64,000 bases of DNA. Origin: a bacterium (GTDB taxonomy: Bacteria > Synergistota > GBS-1). Positions within the stretch are counted from its first letter, which is position 1; each line of letters starts with the position of its first letter. Of the stretch, positions 24,170-64,000 are shown one piece after another. Made by a program: the position numbers and the translations under genes. The notes beneath the pieces were generated by a model. The model did not search any database. It saw only the letters and a program-made list of their open reading frames with translations, and was not told where the DNA came from. The stretch lies in the NCBI GenBank assembly GCA_030153785.1, contig JASKLF010000002.1, forward strand, positions 38,565-102,564, written 5' to 3'.

Positions 24170-24245
24170 TGGAGCGGATAACGGGACTCGAACCCGCGAC
24201 CCTCGGCTTGGGAAGCCGATGCTCTACCCACTGAGCTATATCCGC
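24170..24245 (-). tRNA. tRNA-Gly (anticodon CCC), CCA encoded
   Basis: The reverse complement GCGGATATAGCTCAGTGGGTAGAGCATCGGCTTCCCAAGCCGAGGGTCGCGGGTTCGAGTCCCGTTATCCGCTCCA folds as a 76-nt cloverleaf: 7-bp acceptor stem, GCTC/GAGC D stem, anticodon loop TTCCCAA, and T loop TTCGAGT. Confidence 0.92.
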
Positions 24246-57200: not shown

Positions 57201-59305
57201 TTATGCTCATATGCCATAAGAGCCTCCTCAGCCGTCATAAACCTTCTTCCTTCGCCCTTAACACCGCTTCTTTCGATTGTCATGTAGTAACAACCTATAA
57301 CCATATCCTGTGTAGGAGTAACAATAGGTTTCCCACTGGCTGGTGAAAGAAGGTTATTAGCAGAAAGCATGATAATCCTACTTTCAGCCTGGGCTTCATA
57401 AGACAAGGGAACATGAACAGCCATCTGGTCCCCATCGAAATCAGCATTATAGGCGGTGCAAACAAGTGGATGTATTCTAATAGCCTTCCCATCCATAAGA
57501 ACAGGTTCAAACGCCTGAATACTCAATCTATGCAACGTAGGTGCCCTATTTAAAAGCACAGGGTGCTCTTTAACTACCTCTTCAAGAACATCCCAAGCTT
57601 CCGGCCTTCCACGCTCGATCATCTTTCGAGCGCTCTTTATATTAGGAGCTATTCCTTTCTCAACAAGTCTTCTTTTAACAAATGGTTTGAAAAGCTCCAT
57701 AGCCATCTGCCGTGGCAGGCCACACTGATAAAGCTTAAGCTCAGGACCTATAACGATAACAGACCTACCAGAATAATCAACACGCTTGCCAAGAAGGTTT
57801 TGACGAAATCTACCCTTTTTGCCTCGCAACATATCAGTTAAAGACTTAAGAGGTCTGTTACCAGGACCCACCACAGGCCTTGCTCTCCTACCATTATCAA
57901 GAAGAGCATCTACCGCCTCTTGAAGCATTCTCTTCTCATTTCTAACTATTATCTCAGGTGCCTTAAGAGCTAAGAGTTTTTTCAAACGATTGTTCCTATT
58001 TATAACCCTCCTGTAAAGGTCATTCAAATCGGATGTAGCAAATCTTCCCCCATCTAACTGAACCATGGGTCTGAGCTCTGGTGGAATCACCGGTAAAACA
58101 TCTAAAACCATCCACTCAGGCTTGTTCCCAGAGTATCTAAAAGCCTCCACAACTTCAAGCCTCTTTATAAGCTTGCTTCTCTTCTGACCAGTGGACTCTT
58201 TTATTTGAAGTCTTAGCTCTTCTGCCAAGTGATCTAAGTCAAGATTTTGAAGAAGCTTCTTTATCGCCTCAGCACCCACGCCAGCCTCAAAGGATGAATC
58301 GTACCGTTTGCAAAGTTCATACTCGCTCTCTATTATGATATCTCCCTGTTTGAACGGAGAACTCCCCGGATTAATAACTATGTAACAGCTTTCCTCTAAA
58401 TTAGCTGTTTCTAAACGAACCTTAAATTTCTCACCATATCTCTTTCTATAAAGCTCGTATTCAGAAGCTCCAAGAAAATCCCCTTTTCCAAAAGGCATTT
58501 TCAAAATTTTAGTTATAATATAAGTTTCCTCGCCCTTGATTAAAAAAGGTTCTGCCTTAATTTTTTCTGCCCCATATTCAGACCTAATGGCCTCAAGCTC
58601 GGATAGAGAAATAAGGTCCCCTGCCTTATAGGTAACCCCTGCGATGCTGGCATCTATATCTACTATCTCAAAACATGGTTCACCATCAACCATATCAGCA
58701 AATTCCGACTTAAGACGCTCAAGCTGTTTAGCAGTTATAACTTCACCCTTTTCTAAAGGAATCTCCGTCAAATCAACTACTCTATAAGCCTCTTCAGCTT
58801 TAAACTGCTTATCGAAATGAGAGTGTATCCTATATTGGGAAGCAGTTATAATATCTCCTCTTTTGCAAACGCCCCTGCTCTCATTCATAACCTTGTAGAG
58901 CTGTTCTCTTCTGCGCAAGGAAGCAAAATAGACTACCTTTTCTAAATCTTTGGAAGGAATTCCCAAAAGCAGGCTTAGTTTACTTGGAATACCTTTAAGA
59001 TACCATATATGAACAACGGGAACAGCTAATTCTATGTGCCCCATTCTTTCCCTTCTGACCCTTGATTCAGTTACCTCAACGCCACACCTTTCACATACCA
59101 TACCTTTATATTTAATATGCTTATATTTGCCACAGTAACACTCGTAATCACGCGTAGGACCAAAAATTCTTTCACAGAAAAGCCCGTCCCTCTCAGGTTT
59201 GAGTGTCCTATAATTTATGGTTTCGGGCTTTCTAACCTCTCCTCTCGACCACTTTCTTATCTGCTCTGGGGAAGCTAATCTTATCTTTATAGCCCTAATC
59301 TCCAT
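54275..59305 (-). CDS. rpoC: DNA-directed RNA polymerase subunit beta' (1676 aa, with two large lineage-specific insertions)
   Basis: Zn finger is CYCGKYK...CERCGVEV, catalytic motif [13 protein letters not shown], trigger-loop region TFHTGG...GLPR..QLFE, and C-terminal [21 protein letters not shown]. Confidence 0.95.
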
Positions 59306-62300
59306 CGTTGGTTACCCCTCCCTTTTCCTCCTCTTCTGCCTCCCCTTCCTCTCCTTCAAGCTCTACCTCTACATCTAAACACAATCCTTGTAGTTCCTTA
59401 ACCAGGACTTTAAAGGATTCAGGTAAGCCCGCTTCGGTTATGTCTTCCCCTTTTACAATAGCCTCGTAAGTTTTCATTCTCCCAGGGATATCATCAGACT
59501 TTATGGTTAACATTTCCTGAAGAGTATAAGCGGCGCCGTATCCCTCAAGAGCCCACACTTCCATTTCTCCAAATCTCTGTCCACCAAACTGAGCTTTTCC
59601 TCCAAGGGGCTGTTGGGTTATGAGAGAATAAGGACCTGTAGAACGAGCATGGATTTTGTCGTCTACCATATGAATTAACTTCATCATATACATGTATCCA
59701 ACCGTAACCTCTTGATCGAATGGTTCTCCAGTTCTTCCATCGTAAAGGATAGTTTTGCCCGTTGGCTTAAACCAGGGTTTAATCTCTGAGACCTTTTTAA
59801 GTCCCTCTAAGACATCTTCTTCCTTAGCACCTTCAAAAGCGGGAGTGGCTACTTTAAAACCAAACTCCTTAGCTACCAAGCCCAAGTGAGTCTCAAGGAC
59901 CTGCCCTAAATTCATTCTCGATGGAACTCCAAGAGGGTTAAGGACTATATCTACTGGCGTACCATCGGGTAGATAAGGCATATCTTCCACAGGCAAAATT
60001 ACGGAAATTACACCTTTATTTCCATGCCTACCCGCCATTTTATCCCCAACAGAAATCTTTCTTATCTGAGCAACATAAACACGCACAAGCTTATTTACAC
60101 CGGGAGGAAGTTCATCATTGTTTTCTCGAGAAAAGATCTTAACATCAACCACCTTACCGCCTTCGCCGTGTGGAACCCTTAAAGAAGTATCTCTTACTTC
60201 CCTTGCTTTTTCCCCGAAAATAGCTCTTAACAACCTCTCTTCCGGAGTTAAATCCGTTTCCCCTTTAGGCGTCACCTTCCCAACAAGTATATCGCCCGCC
60301 TTAACTTCAGCTCCTACCCTGACTATACCGTTCTCGTCAAGGTTTTTCAGCTGGTCTTCTCCTACATTTGGAATGTCCCGGGTTATCTCTTCGGGACCGA
60401 GCTTTGTCTCTCTGGCCTCTATCTCATACTCCTCAATATGTATGGAGGTATAAACATCTTCCTTAACTAATCGTTCACTTATTACAATAGCATCTTCAAA
60501 GTTATAGCCCTCCCACGGCATAAAAGCAACTAAAACATTATTACCAAGAGCAAGTTCTCCATTATCGGTAGACATCCCATCAGCTATGACATCGCCGGCC
60601 TCGACTTTATCTCCCTTTCTTACTATGGGTCTTTGATTTATACAAGTTCCTTGATTGGATCTCTTAAACTTAAGTAGCTTATAAACATCTCTTTCACCGG
60701 ATGGAGTTCTTATCACTATCTCATCTGCCCATACCTTCTCAACGATACCCCCCCTTTTCGCAACAACAACGGCATTAGAATCCAAAGCAACTTTTCTCTC
60801 TATCCCAGTTCCCACAAGTGGGGCCTCGGGTTTAACAAGAGGAACAGCCTGACGTTGCATGTTAGATCCCATGAGGGCTCTATTGGCATCATCATGTTCA
60901 AGGAAAGGAATTAAGGAAGTAGAAACACTAAAAACCTGCTTTGGGGATATATCCATAAAATTAACCATTTTAGGGTCAACCCACACTATGTCTCTACGAT
61001 GACGAGCTATCACCTTATCTCCGATTAAATTCCCATCCTCATCAACGGGGGTATTGGCCTGTGCTATATAGTATCTATCTTCTTCATCTGCCGTGAGATA
61101 CACAACCTCATTGGTTACTTTTCCATTAATGACTTTTCTGTAAGGCGTTTCTATAAATCCAAATTCATTTACCCGAGCATAAGTGCTCAAAGATGTAACG
61201 AGACCAATGTTTGGACCTTCTGGAGTCTCTATAGGACAAATCCTTCCGTAATGGGTGTAGTGAACATCTCTAACCTCAAATCCCGCTCTTTCCCTCGTTA
61301 AACCGCCAGGGCCTAACGCACTAAGCCTTCTCCTATGAGTTAACTCAGCTAGCGGGTTAGTCTGGTCCATAAATTGAGATAACTGGTTTGAGCCAAAAAA
61401 TTCTCTAACTATGGCCACGATTGGCCTCACATTCATCAAAACTTGAGGAGTTGCGTTAGGATAAAGTGTCATTCTATCCCTTACCATTCTCTCAACTCTC
61501 AAAAGCCCTATCCTGAACTGGTTCTGTAAAAGCCCTCCTACTCCTCTTACCCTTCTATTTCCAAGATGATCTATATCATCTATTTCTCCTTTACCATCTC
61601 TTAACTGTAAAAGATAATCAACAACACCACAGATATCCTCTTTTTGTAGAGTCACCACCTCGAGAGGAATTTCGAGCCCCAATTTTTTGTTAAGCTTAAA
61701 CCTTCCCACTCTTCCCAAATTGTACCTTCGAGGGTCTCCAAAGAGGGCATGAGCAAGCTCCTTTGCCCCTTCAAGCCTCGCAGGCTCGCTGGGCCTCAGC
61801 CTTCTAAAGAGGTCTATAAGAGCATCCTCCATTGTAAGGGTCGGGTCTCTCTCTAAGGTATTAGCTATAGCAGCGTCAACCTTATACAAAGTAACAGTAG
61901 AAATTCCCCGCTCTATCAGAAACTCTATATCCTCCTTCGTCAACCTATCTCCCTTTCTCATTAAAACCTCGCCAGTTTCCGGGTCCAAAACAGGCTCAGC
62001 GAGTATCTTACCTTTAACGAGTTCCTCTATGATTTCTGCATCATAAACCCCTTCCGAAAAGTACTCAAGTATCTCTTGGTTGTCTTTAAAGCCAAGGACT
62101 TTCAAAAGCAAGGTAACGGGAACCTTCTTTCTACGGTCAACCTTCACAGATATTACTTCTCCTGGAGTAAGCTCAAATTCCAACCAGGCCCCTCTATCGG
62201 GTATAAGACGTGCCGTAAAAATTTCTCTTCCCTGGGTTCCAATTTCCTTGTCAAAGTAAACACCTGGCGATCTTATAAGCTGGTTAACAATTACTCGTTC

Positions 62301-62681
62301 GGTGCCGTTAACGATAAATGTTCCTCGCTCCGTCATAAGAGGAAGGTCTCCCATATACACATCTTCCTCTTTAACTTCACCGGACAAGCGATTTATCAAT
62401 CTTAGCTTTGCAAAGAGTGGAGCCTGATAAGACAAATCCTTCTCTTTGGCCTCATACTCGCTGCACTTAACTTCTCCCAAGTAATAATCAACAAACTCTA
62501 AAACCATATCACCTTTATAGCTTTCGATAGGGAAAATCTCATTAAAAACTTCACGAAGTCCACTCTCTAAGAACCACCTAAAGGAATTCTTCTGAACCTC
62601 AATGAGGTCTGGCAGAGGAAGAAATTCCGTGGAATTACCATAAAAAACCCTTTCCCTTCCCACCTTATTAAAATTTTCCAT
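59295..62681 (-). CDS. rpoB: DNA-directed RNA polymerase subunit beta
   Basis: Conserved beta regions are present (e.g. [21 protein letters not shown]). I prefer ATG 62681 (GAGGTGA 8 nt upstream, N-terminus [11 protein letters not shown]) over the track start at 62723. Overlaps the rpoC start by 11 nt. Confidence 0.95.
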
Positions 62682-62881
62682 GCAAAAAATCACCTCACAA
62701 GGTAACAGGCTTGGGAGGGGCAATCAGATGACAAGTTATGATGTTACCGGAGGAGAAAGCAAAAAAACAAACACCATCTTTCCCCTTTCTGAGGGTTTTA
62801 GCGGGGTTTAGGAAGGTTTTCATCCTCTTTTTCCTTAAATACTCACACTTTCTTTTAAAATCTTCCTCAATCTCCTTTCAC

Positions 62882-62957
62882 TGGCGTGCCTGGCGGGATT
62901 TGAACCCGCGACCTTTGGATCCGGAGTCCAACGCTCTATCCCCTGAGCTACAGGCAC
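62882..62957 (-). tRNA. tRNA-Arg (anticodon CCG), CCA encoded
   Basis: The reverse complement GTGCCTGTAGCTCAGGGGATAGAGCGTTGGACTCCGGATCCAAAGGTCGCGGGTTCAAATCCCGCCAGGCACGCCA is a 76-nt cloverleaf with anticodon loop CTCCGGA. Confidence 0.9.
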
Positions 62958-62971
62958 GCCTCCCAAGATAA

Positions 62972-62999
62972 AGGATACTCTAAAAATATCAATATGTCA
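62972..62999 (-). promoter_or_regulatory. Candidate promoter for tRNA-Arg (and possibly rpoBC)
   Basis: On the minus strand: TTGACA (62999-62994), 16 nt spacer, TATCCT (62977-62972). It lies 14 nt upstream of the mature tRNA 5' end. Confidence 0.4.
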
Positions 63000-63007
63000 A
63001 GTCAGGG

Positions 63008-63037
63008 TTGACAACATGCCGTTGGATGTGGTATAAG
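63008..63037 (+). promoter_or_regulatory. Promoter of the Tyr-rich leader / transporter receptor transcription unit
   Basis: TTGACA (63008-63013), 18 nt spacer, TATAAG (63032-63037) with an upstream TG (TGgTATAAG, extended -10). Confidence 0.55.
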
Positions 63038-63058
63038 TTTTAAAGAGGAGTGATAGCG

Positions 63059-63169
63059 ATGCTGATGGTAACGAGCGCAGCCAGTGAGAAAGTTTATTAT
63101 TACGCTTATTATTATTTCTACTATTACAGCCCACCAGAAGGTGGGAAAGGCTGGCTGCGCAAAGGCTGA
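63059..63169 (+). CDS. Leader peptide ORF (36 codons) with nine Tyr and one Phe in eleven consecutive codons
   Basis: GAGGAG lies 8 nt upstream of ATG 63059. The translation is MLMVTSAASEKVYYYAYYYFYYYSPPEGGKGWLRKG*. Tyr/Phe codons occupy 63095-63127. The ORF is embedded in alternative terminator/antiterminator pairings. It is below the ORF-track length cutoff. Confidence 0.65.
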   Translation: MLMVTSAASEKVYYYAYYYFYYYSPPEGGKGWLRKG

Positions 63170-63226
63170 GGTAAAGTCAACCTCGGCAAGCTTGGCAAAA
63201 AGCCGCCACCTTTCCCAGGTGGCGGC
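63130..63226 (+). promoter_or_regulatory. Attenuator RNA: mutually exclusive 1:2, 2:3 and 3:4 pairings
   Basis: Pairing 1:2 is CCCACC (63130-35) with GGTGGG (63140-45). Pairing 2:3 is TGGGAAAGG(c)TGGC (63142-55) with GCCACCTTTCCCA (63205-17), 13 bp with one bulge. Pairing 3:4 is GCCGCCACC (63202-10) with GGTGGCGGC (63218-26). Segment 1 starts 3 nt after the last Tyr codon. Confidence 0.6.
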
Positions 63227-63236
63227 TTTTTATTTT
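63197..63236 (+). terminator. Intrinsic terminator of the leader transcript
   Basis: AAAAAGCCGCCACC-TTTCCCA-GGTGGCGGCTTTTTATTTT. This is a 9-bp GC stem extendable by A-U pairs, with a 7-nt loop and a T run, and it lies 25 nt upstream of the receptor gene start. Confidence 0.8.
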
Positions 63237-63260
63237 AACCTTAAAAGGAGGTACCCAAAC

Positions 63261-64000
63261 ATGAAAAAGGTATCAGTAATAACCATTATCAGTGGCCTAA
63301 TATTAAGTATGGTAGGGTTTTCCTTTGCCTCAGAAAAAGTCATAAAACTGTCCTACGCAAACTTTTTCCCACCATCCCACATTCAGTCCATTTTAGCTGA
63401 AGAATGGATAAAGGAAATTCAGAAAAAAACAAATGGAAAGGTCGAAATCTCCTACTTCCCTGGAGGTTCTCTCCTGCAAGGGCCAAATGTTTTTGAAGGA
63501 GTAGTAAATGGGATAGCGGATATAGGAATGTCATGCTTTGCCTATACAAGTGGGAGATTTCCTATCATGGAGGCTATAGACCTCCCCTTAGGATATCCCG
63601 ATGGAATTACAGCAACAAGAGTAATAAACAAATACTTCAAGGCCATGAACCCCAAAGAATTATCGAATGTTAAAGTTTTATACTTACACGCCCATGGCCC
63701 TGGAATCCTTCACTCTAAAATAAAAATAGAGAAATTAGAAGATATAAAAGGTGTTAAGATAAGAACTACAGGCTTCAGTGCAAGAGTTGCAAAAGCACTG
63801 GGGGGCGTACCTGTGGCAATGAGTCAAGGAATGGCATACGAAGCATTACAAAAAGGAATAGTAGAAGCAACTTTTACCCCAATGGAAACCCTGAAAGGAT
63901 GGAAACAAGCAGAAGTAATAAAATACACTATAATGTGCACCAAAATAGGTTATACAACAGGAATGTACGTCATTATGAACAAAGCAAAATGGGAGAACTT
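63261..64000 (+). CDS. Tripartite ATP-independent periplasmic transporter solute receptor, DctP family (3' end runs off the window)
   Basis: AAGGAGGT SD and a signal peptide (MKKVSVITIISGLILSMVGFSFA). The mature part has the DctP-family pattern (KLSYAN..P..H......W...I...T.GKVEI..FPGG.L......FEGV..G.AD.G.....Y..GRFP......LP...........LEDIKG.KIR). Confidence 0.75.
   Translation, partial: MKKVSVITIISGLILSMVGFSFASEKVIKLSYANFFPPSHIQSILAEEWIKEIQKKTNGKVEISYFPGGSLLQGPNVFEGVVNGIADIGMSCFAYTSGRFPIMEAIDLPLGYPDGITATRVINKYFKAMNPKELSNVKVLYLHAHGPGILHSKIKIEKLEDIKGVKIRTTGFSARVAKALGGVPVAMSQGMAYEALQKGIVEATFTPMETLKGWKQAEVIKYTIMCTKIGYTTGMYVIMNKAKWEN

Follow-up and report, generated by a model that had tools for sequence, protein, structure and literature searches.

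Introduction

In the classical attenuators trpL, pheL, hisL, thrL, leuL, and ilvL, a short open reading frame (ORF) led by a Shine–Dalgarno (SD) sequence carries a run of codons for the cognate amino acid and is combined with mutually exclusive hairpins, in an arrangement that is off by default. To our knowledge, the targets of leader attenuation are almost all biosynthetic operons, and they come from few well-studied phyla. Here we analyze a stretch of 64,000 nucleotides from a bacterium of the lineage Synergistota; GBS-1 (contig JASKLF010000002.1, in the following called the window) and describe an element in front of the transporter receptor gene dctP that, judged from its sequence and that of its relatives, is likely a ribosome-mediated (leader-peptide) transcription attenuator responding to Tyr-tRNA.

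Tyrosine-linked genes, including transporter genes, are coupled to tyrosine or to the charging of tRNA-Tyr by the Tyr T-box leaders, the first of which was that of Bacillus subtilis tyrS, and by the TyrR regulon of Escherichia coli (tyrP, aroP, mtr). The T-box brings about antitermination by direct binding of the uncharged tRNA and needs no translation, while TyrR is a DNA-binding protein. The Salmonella leaders mgtL and mgtP, which contain proline codons, sense proline, Mg2+, or osmotic signals; the speed of their translation sets the read-through into Mg2+ transporter genes, and termination is partly Rho-dependent. Leaders in front of aroF have also been described. In Corynebacterium glutamicum, the aroR leader with its Phe-Tyr-Phe codons responds to phenylalanine by ribosome stalling, according to PMC11802643, which summarizes Neshat et al. 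2014. In Acholeplasma, the candidate uORFC-13-1 consists of a promoter, a ribosome binding site, a Phe run, and then an intrinsic terminator (PMC8632094). A preliminary description of our locus had named no canonical tyrosine-specific leader among the classical ones (Trp, Phe, His, Leu, Thr, Ile/Val), and indeed we found no tyrosine-specific leader peptide in the literature searched, in which most subscription journals were not covered. A paper on the bacterium GBS-1 was not found there either.

Results and Discussion

The element starts with a promoter of the sigma-70 type (63008–63037; positions are those of the window and on its plus strand unless stated otherwise), which is composed of the −35 box TTGACA (63008–63013), an 18-nt spacer that ends in TGg, and the extended −10 box TGgTATAAG (63029–63037, with TATAAG at 63032–63037). 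It is followed by the SD sequence AAAGAGGAG (63042–63050), whose core GAGGAG (63045–63050) lies 8 nt before an ATG, and by the leader ORF MLMVTSAASEKVYYYAYYYFYYYSPPEGGKGWLRKG (63059–63169), which extends over 36 codons from the ATG at 63059 to the TGA at 63167–63169. The putative sensor codons at 63095–63127 read YYYAYYYFYYY, which are 11 codons with nine Tyr and one Phe. Only 3 nt after the last Tyr codon begins the hairpin P1 (63130–63145), in which CCCACC (63130–63135) pairs across the loop AGAA with GGTGGG (63140–63145). The last nucleotides of P1 already belong to segment 2, TGGGAAAGGCTGGCTGCGC (63142–63160), which with its part 63142–63155 (TGGGAAAGGcTGGC) is complementary to 63205–63217 (GCCACCTTTCCCA), giving an antiterminator of 12 base pairs with one bulged C. 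This second strand, segment 3 (63205–63217), makes up at the same time most of the left arm and the loop of an intrinsic terminator (63197–63236), which features a 9-bp G+C-rich stem (GCCGCCACC, 63202–63210, with GGTGGCGGC, 63218–63226), an A/U extension, and finally the tract T5AT4. Each of these parts, from the promoter and the SD-led ORF with its Tyr run to the hairpin behind the run, the antiterminator pairing, and the terminator with its T5ATTTT tract, had been put forward in the preliminary description, and we could locate all of them where it had placed them. The position of the element between a tRNA-Arg gene and a DctP-family receptor gene was borne out as well: the tRNA-Arg(CCG) gene (62882–62957, minus strand) lies upstream of the leader, and downstream follows dctP as the first regulated gene (63245–64000), with the SD sequence AAGGAGG at 63245–63251 and the ATG at 63261, truncated by the end of the window.

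The Tyr run of this type is a single occurrence in the six frames of the 64 kb and was not seen in any of 50 shuffles. The leader of 201 nt folds with a minimum free energy (MFE) of −78.8 kcal/mol, compared to −55.2 ± 4.2 for the shuffled sequences (z = −5.6). Together with the recurrence in 11 other distinct sequences, these values show that the arrangement is beyond chance. A consensus scan for promoters and terminators had reported neither the promoter nor the terminator of the leader; the promoter was absent because its −10 box ends in G, which the rule of the scan excludes.

The DctP fragment has thousands of relatives, and the DNA of relatives was fetched around the closest of them. Twelve distinct versions of the element were aligned (alignment A5), whereby some of the counts below cover only the first 11 sequences; the twelfth is the locus L096. 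In a survey of orthologues that comprised 80 genome loci with DctP relatives at 53–80% identity, the leader was found only in GBS-1, and the Tyr mini-ORF occurs only beside the closest DctP relatives with 74–100% protein identity. Its carriers are the window, two metagenome-assembled genomes that were labelled Synergistetes or Synergistota by the depositors, the unclassified "bacterium GBS-1" from Great Boiling Spring, and several metagenome contigs. In the orthologues from Thermodesulfobacteriota, Spirochaetota, and other groups at 53–70% identity, the leader was not found, and the same is true for the locus L091, which stems from the same sample as L089 and has a 70%-identical dctP with a promoter of its own. 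A search by nhmmer with the family profile on the window and all fetched loci gave no further copies, while a search with the peptide profile in 5.8 billion proteins gave six matches, every one from the leader family. Confined in this way to the closest relatives, the element is restricted to one lineage and is no general trait of the transporter family.

Within this lineage the element is well preserved, even though the upstream neighbors vary between rpoB/tRNA-Arg, the gene of an AMP-binding enzyme, and the gene of an enoyl-CoA hydratase. All 12 versions possess the promoter, with TTGAC(A/T), a spacer of 17–18 nt, and a TG-preceded −10 box TATA(A/T)N, and all 12 have an SD-preceded ATG or TTG in the aromatic frame. 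The other two frames, which are Ile-rich and Leu-rich in the run, were considered as the sensor and rejected, as they come without a consistent SD-led start. Homologous mini-ORFs of 34–40 codons are present in all relatives. The runs of the dctP type contain 6–10 Tyr codons (7–10 except for the shortest one, in L089), 0–2 Phe codons, and no Trp codon, and P1 begins 0–6 nt after the run. All 12 versions share the sequence GGGAAAGG(C/T)TGG; the only deviation is one C-to-T change, in L096. A terminator is predicted in every version with a conserved stem, and its loop TTTCCC is invariant in all 12, at a mean column identity of the alignment of 68%. Terminator loops are not usually so constant, but a loop that must pair with GGGAAA would be. 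The stop codon follows 12 nt after GGGAAAGGYTGG in the window copy and 17 nt after it in the other eleven. A hairpin at the stop is found in 12/12 versions with −13.7 to −17.7 kcal/mol; it is built from different stem sequences and has the stop codon within its 5' arm or at the edge of its loop. In the window, this hairpin is part of the MFE structure (63165–63187) and holds the TGA in its 5' arm. The recurrence of a Tyr-rich mini-ORF plus terminator before orthologous receptor genes, which had been proposed as a check of the attenuator, is thus given in the nine versions of the dctP type, all from one lineage, and the pairing scheme is kept in all 12 versions.

The MFE fold contains a long-range helix P0, in which GCGCAGCCAGT (63075–63085, leader codons 6–9) pairs with GCTGGCTGCGC (63150–63160), so that the Tyr run and P1 are enclosed. 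The helix is found by MFE folding, by the pair count on the named structure, and by RNAalifold, and we propose it to be the anti-antiterminator. P0 and the stop hairpin are features beyond the preliminary description. Segment 2 is consequently held by two partners, with its 5' end in P1 and its 3' end in the stronger, covarying P0, unless its part 63142–63155 pairs with segment 3. At 37 °C, the calculated energies are −24.5 kcal/mol for the P0 duplex, −26.0 kcal/mol for the antiterminator duplex, −25.1 kcal/mol for the predicted terminator (−10.1 at 77 °C), −10.1 kcal/mol for P1, and −12.8 kcal/mol for the stop hairpin of the window copy. The energies of the terminator, P0, and the antiterminator are closely balanced.

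From the alignment alone, RNAalifold recovered P0, P1, the stop hairpin, and the terminator with 10 compensated pairs. In the named structure, 92.6% of the cells in 11 sequences pair, compared to 37–51% when the partners are slid by 1–3 columns. Double changes were detected in eight pairs, of which P0 accounts for five, the terminator for two, and P1 for one, and at most 1 of 500 shuffles did as well; for P0, the number of compensatory pairs increases to six with RNAalifold. The twelfth sequence furnishes a further compensated pair in P0 (CCAACC with GGTTGG), and the compensated pair of P1 is A-U in two sequences and G-C in ten. Additionally, all 12 pairs of the antiterminator are possible in 11/11 sequences.

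The region behind the run allowed us to distinguish between conservation of the RNA and conservation of the peptide. Eleven versions translate the conserved GGGAAAGGCTGG as R-E-R-L, whereas the window copy, in which one base is lost between the run and P1, translates it as G-K-G-W; over a longer stretch, the readings are R-E-R-L-A-A in the eleven versions and G-K-G-W-L-R in the window copy. The conserved CUGAGGUAA (63165–63173 in the window and the aligned positions) provides stop codons in two frames. The window copy ends at its UGA and most of the others at a UAA or UAG four bases later, so that a one-base frame change after the run still leads to termination at most 4 nt from the usual place. 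Inside the run, 62 TAT and 26 TAC codons are used across the family, which are interchangeable as long as the amino acid is kept. Selection hence acts on the codon identity inside the run and on the RNA sequence after it. The conserved RNA in a shifted frame, together with the synonymous drift in the run, argues for a leader peptide that is a sensor rather than a product.

These data bear directly on the idea that the mini-ORF encodes a functional Tyr-rich peptide, modified or secreted, from a small gene with its own terminator, while dctP is expressed separately. In its favor, the C-terminal half KPAKxRERLAA looks conserved outside the window copy, and the ORF was predicted as a gene by gene callers, as is the case for the 37-codon mini-ORFs of L087 and L088. 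The window copy, however, reads the conserved RNA in the other frame and arrives at SPPEGGKGWLRKG, the peptide has no signal sequence, and neither a modifying enzyme nor an exporter is encoded by an adjacent gene. The terminator loop can pair with the 3' part of the ORF itself, and the gap between the T-tract and the SD sequence of dctP is too short to fit a second promoter. As the profile search in 5.8 billion proteins returned only the leader family in addition, we regard a peptide product as extremely improbable.

Support for sensing by the ribosome came from paralogous leaders. An exact-pattern scan of metagenome contigs with the two invariant RNA segments and a search with the peptide profile gave three added sequences, which possess the same RNA scaffold, a different leader (MRKGTASLNVWFSFNYYYFYFTWPAKLRERLAVLSLR and two relatives), and a different target. 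Their runs mix Trp, Phe, and Tyr codons, and they precede aroE (shikimate dehydrogenase), aroD (type I dehydroquinase), and tctC-tctB-tctA, which encode a tripartite tricarboxylate transporter (TTT); in L097, an IclR regulator also belongs to the operon. The mixed leaders with the genes behind them are found at L092 5162–6421, L094 745–5961 (minus strand), L096 89–4298, and L097 9001–15065, and for one copy the source is the Great Boiling Spring population that also has a copy of the dctP type. Thus, a Tyr-only run stands before the genes for DctPQM, a methyl-accepting chemotaxis protein (MCP), and an M18 aminopeptidase in nine versions, and a Trp/Phe/Tyr run stands before aroE-aroD-tctCBA in three. 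A leader for three amino acids in front of genes of the common pathway and a nearly Tyr-only leader in front of an uptake operon are what ribosome-mediated sensing predicts, while a structural role or a peptide role does not explain a codon choice that matches the target. The aroE-aroD-tctCBA genes look like an operon for the import and conversion of an intermediate of the shikimate pathway under the control of aromatic amino acids. On balance, we favor the view that the element is a reusable attenuator cassette, in which the RNA switch stays constant and the sensor codons are retuned, Tyr-only for tyrosine foraging and Trp/Phe/Tyr for the import and conversion of shikimate intermediates.

The same comparison speaks to the question of why decoding should slow down in the run. 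Instead of the tyrosine supply, the queuosine status of tRNA-Tyr with its GUN anticodon or a general slowdown could delay the reading of Tyr codons, and the leader would then report a broader stress. Queuosine is reported to alter the decoding of Tyr codons (PMC11703503), and TAT outnumbers TAC in the runs by 62 to 26. We nevertheless judge this explanation very improbable, given that the supply of amino acids better fits both the paralogue, which mixes Trp, Phe, and Tyr before shikimate-pathway genes, and the Tyr-only leader, which precedes a receptor of the aromatic-acid type.

For the proposed Tyr-responsive attenuator we envisage the following course. Transcription would start about 7 nt after the −10 box, and the leader ORF would be translated while it emerges. 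If translation does not take place, P0 and P1 would lock segment 2, segment 3 would form the terminator, and a transcript of approximately 190 nt would end at the T-tract. If tyrosine is plentiful, the ribosome would arrive at the stop codon, whose hairpin lies between segments 2 and 3, and would cover the 3' half of segment 2; P1 would re-form behind the ribosome, the terminator would form, and transcription would halt. If tyrosine is scarce, the ribosome would stall in the Tyr run, and its front edge would cover or open P1, while ribosomes that follow or initiate, or steric hindrance, would block the 5' arm of P0. Segments 2 and 3 could then pair, the antiterminator would pre-empt the terminator, and the polymerase would enter dctP. 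The output would be an uptake operon consisting of the genes of a tripartite ATP-independent periplasmic (TRAP) transporter, dctPQM, of the chemoreceptor, and of the M18 aminopeptidase, gated by the supply of charged tRNA-Tyr. Here we infer the disabling of P0, the steps of pausing and synchronization, and the response to Tyr-tRNA, and we hold the detailed role of P0 with less confidence than the attenuator as such.

This course was modelled with ribosome positions codon by codon for the first 11 sequences found. In a front-exclusion model, no RNA lying 5' of the ribosome front could pair, and the transcript ended directly ahead of segment 4. Under these conditions the antiterminator is predicted to form with the A site inside the run or at most about three codons past it, to be lost at the stop codon, and to be absent in the untranslated RNA, where P0 forms. 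This pattern was obtained for 11/11 sequences at 70 °C and for 10/11 at 37 °C. For the window copy at 70 °C, antitermination is predicted only from the final three Tyr codons and the two codons that follow, because P1 competes. When we used a simple-masking model instead, in which P0 is free to close round the ribosome, P0 wins and the antiterminator is mostly absent. The folding with and without ribosome cover, which the preliminary description had suggested as a check, therefore agrees with the attenuator under front exclusion and mostly fails to give the antiterminator under simple masking. Its reading of the locus as a leader-peptide attenuator gains comparative support, while the geometry of trpL, pheL, and hisL that it had assigned needs a correction: segment 2 turned out to be held by P0 as well, whose 5' arm is upstream of the Tyr codons.

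The result of the simple masking is one of several points that weigh against a Tyr-responsive attenuator. The 5' arm of P0 lies 10–50 nt upstream of the Tyr codons, and a lone stalled ribosome does not cover it, so that the three-hairpin geometry needs an extra step, which may be queued or initiating ribosomes or steric exclusion. In silico, the modelled switch works only if the 5' arm of P0 is blocked during the stall. A queuing of ribosomes over codons 6–9 appears plausible in view of the strong SD sequence and of the distance of the P0 arm, which lies 16–26 nt after the start codon; alternatively, we reason that the helix may be unable to close round a 70S ribosome in the available time. 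The strands of the antiterminator never vary, and covariation thus gives no proof of their pairing. Furthermore, the 12 sequences form one small clade with few independent events, and the Tyr-only and the mixed leaders are two paralogous lineages and therefore one contrast, not twelve. As far as could be told, none of the carrier organisms is cultured. In C. glutamicum, tyrosine was without effect on AroR with its F-Y-F codons (PMC11802643). Finally, a bound factor could instead be the reason why segments 2 and 3 are almost without variation.

If such a factor in trans, an RNA-binding protein or a small molecule, gave the decisive signal on the invariant GGGAAAGGCUGG or CCGCCACCUUUCCC, the element would still be an attenuator, with the mini-ORF as a secondary or second input. 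This would account for the near absence of variation in segments 2 and 3, terminator loop included, across 12 versions, compared to the mean column identity given above, and also for the observation that a ribosome stalled at Tyr codons does not obviously disable P0. The invariance, however, is explained by three overlapping pairing duties, namely in P1, in P0, and in the antiterminator or terminator. Moreover, the SD sequence, the start, the aromatic run, and the position of the stop are conserved with synonymous drift between TAT and TAC, and the composition of the run tracks the downstream pathway while the proposed binding site is constant. No riboswitch or protein-binding family was matched: a permissive Rfam search at E ≤ 10 over 62700–63400 gave no T-box or other riboswitch, and a search of the whole window at the gathering level gave tRNAs only. 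All in all, we consider a decisive factor in trans improbable. Weak matches to Thr_leader (RF00506, 27.4 bits) and Phe_leader (RF01859, 17.3–18.9 bits) remained below the threshold of 55; they occur on both strands, reflect the terminator only, and were discarded. Besides tRNA-Arg, the only other Rfam match in the window is a second tRNA at 24173–24245 (minus strand).

We next turn to the genes behind the tyrosine leader. The downstream gene belongs to the DctP family (PF03480, E = 3e-37; NF037995 above its cut-off). An automatic call had placed its start at the GTG at 63084 (P0001, 397 aa, 63084–64000, plus strand), which is an artefact of an open Ile frame: this frame reads the Tyr run as Ile, continues through the rest of the leader and the terminator, and is open for 177 nt upstream of the ATG at 63261. 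The true start is this ATG, with the SD sequence at 63245–63251 and a signal peptide behind it, and the relatives have 337–341 aa. In the Tyr-only type, the leader is always attached to dctP, and on the longer contigs dctQ, dctM, the methyl-accepting chemotaxis protein, and the M18 aminopeptidase follow; genes for DctQ and DctM come after dctP in L001, L002–L005, L088, and L089. The chemoreceptor has 674 aa with HAMP and MCPsignal domains and a weak match to dCache_1, whereby its gene is divided into two ORFs in L088. The M18 aminopeptidase matches NF002600 with 629 bits. Both lie in the region 8853–12205 of L002, with equivalents in L004, L088, and L089. One may speculate that the chemoreceptor and the aminopeptidase belong to a wider foraging response.

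An AlphaFold model of the receptor was calculated from the 88%-identical relative P0002 with an alignment of 24 sequences and reached a mean predicted local distance difference test (pLDDT) score of 92.5. The best matches of the receptor by sequence in the PDB are 4n6d, 4pgn, and 4nap (E 1e-47 to 1e-51), and the top 24 Foldseek neighbors in the PDB are all TRAP receptors for aromatic acids, with query-normalized TM-scores of 0.81–0.85 and identities of 25–32%, which indicate the class of the ligand and not the ligand. Among these neighbors are Dde_0634, Desal_3247, and marine receptors with the title "specific for aromatic acid ligands", as well as TarP proteins with coumarate, ferulate, caffeate, cinnamate, or 4-hydroxyphenylacetate. 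In a review, "indole acids" are included among the TRAP ligands (PMC5812351). The transporter probably imports tyrosine or a 4-hydroxyphenyl acid, for example 4-hydroxyphenylpyruvate; our most economical guess is tyrosine itself or one of the 4-hydroxyphenyl 2-oxo or 2-hydroxy acids from which a transaminase could make tyrosine. Here too our confidence stays below that for the attenuator. The earlier suggestion of tyrosine or an aromatic precursor as the substrate fits this class, as the nearest structures bind aromatic acids, one of them 4-hydroxyphenylacetate. In L091 (1–5330), the 70%-identical dctPQM genes with their own TTGACA promoter and without a leader are followed by two HGD-D genes of the 2-hydroxyacyl-CoA dehydratase family. 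These neighbors hint that the substrates of this transporter clade are 2-hydroxy or 2-oxo acids that originate from amino acids.

Upstream of the leader, the region 62965–63014 contains promoter-like sites on the minus strand for the divergent tRNA-Arg gene, for example TTGACA (63000–62995) with a 17-nt spacer and TATCCT. These sites stand back to back with the leader promoter, and a region of about 50 nt is common to both. For the RpoB protein of the window (59295–62723, minus strand), five close clusters at 85–100% identity were found in 5.8 billion proteins, while beyond the clade the identity drops to at most 68% for Synergistaceae, Thermanaerovibrio, and Aminobacterium, with Moorella (Bacillota) at about the same level. 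From this drop we conclude that the element belongs to a small and deep lineage. The depositors label this lineage Synergistota or leave it unclassified, and sample names of the relatives carry a "77" (GBSCECS77c, GBSCSSed77C).

Conclusion

In summary, we describe a conserved leader with a Tyr run, a covarying long-range helix, and a terminator in front of a TRAP operon. If our reading is true, it is, within the literature searched, the first tyrosine-specific leader-peptide attenuator and also the first leader attenuator that controls TRAP and TTT transporters and a chemotaxis receptor. The logic of the attenuator would then extend to a thermophilic and uncultured lineage, where it is connected to uptake, chemotaxis, and the cleavage of peptides, and the carriers would meet their needs for aromatic amino acids largely by scavenging. 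The Tyr-only and the mixed leaders on one scaffold would represent a natural swap of specificity, which is directly testable by an exchange of the runs. The specificity of the regulator may additionally aid annotation, since it would assign the TRAP system to a tyrosine-related aromatic acid and the TTT system to a shikimate-pathway intermediate. Finally, such a compact switch would have to operate at the temperatures of hot springs and could serve as an amino-acid-responsive genetic part.

Compared to known systems, the element shares with the classical enterobacterial attenuators the promoter, the SD-led mini-ORF, the cognate codon run, a predicted set of anti-antiterminator, antiterminator, and terminator, the stop codon before the terminator, and a proposed default off state. 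There is no sequence relationship to them: in its mode of action the element would resemble the classical trp, phe, and his attenuators, but by sequence it falls into none of the curated families. Different from the classical cases, tyrosine is the amino acid that would be sensed, and the target is an operon for uptake, chemotaxis, and a peptidase instead of biosynthesis. Segment 2 has two partners here, the sensor codons come only after the 5' arm of P0, the stronger of the two, and the stop codon has a separate hairpin. The aroR leader resembles the mixed Trp/Phe/Tyr paralogue before aroE-aroD; as far as it is summarized in the source cited above, it has three sensor codons compared to the 7–10 Tyr codons here, controls the 3-deoxy-D-arabino-heptulosonate 7-phosphate (DAHP) synthase and not a transporter, and belongs to another phylum. 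The uORFC-13-1 candidate contains Phe instead of Tyr, and its structure, its lineage, and its biosynthetic target are different. The T-box and TyrR are functional analogues of our leader, and the T-box shares with it the principle of antitermination. With an unrelated RNA, mgtL and mgtP precede transporter genes just as the tyrosine leader does, so that leader ORFs of this kind are not only a matter of biosynthesis.

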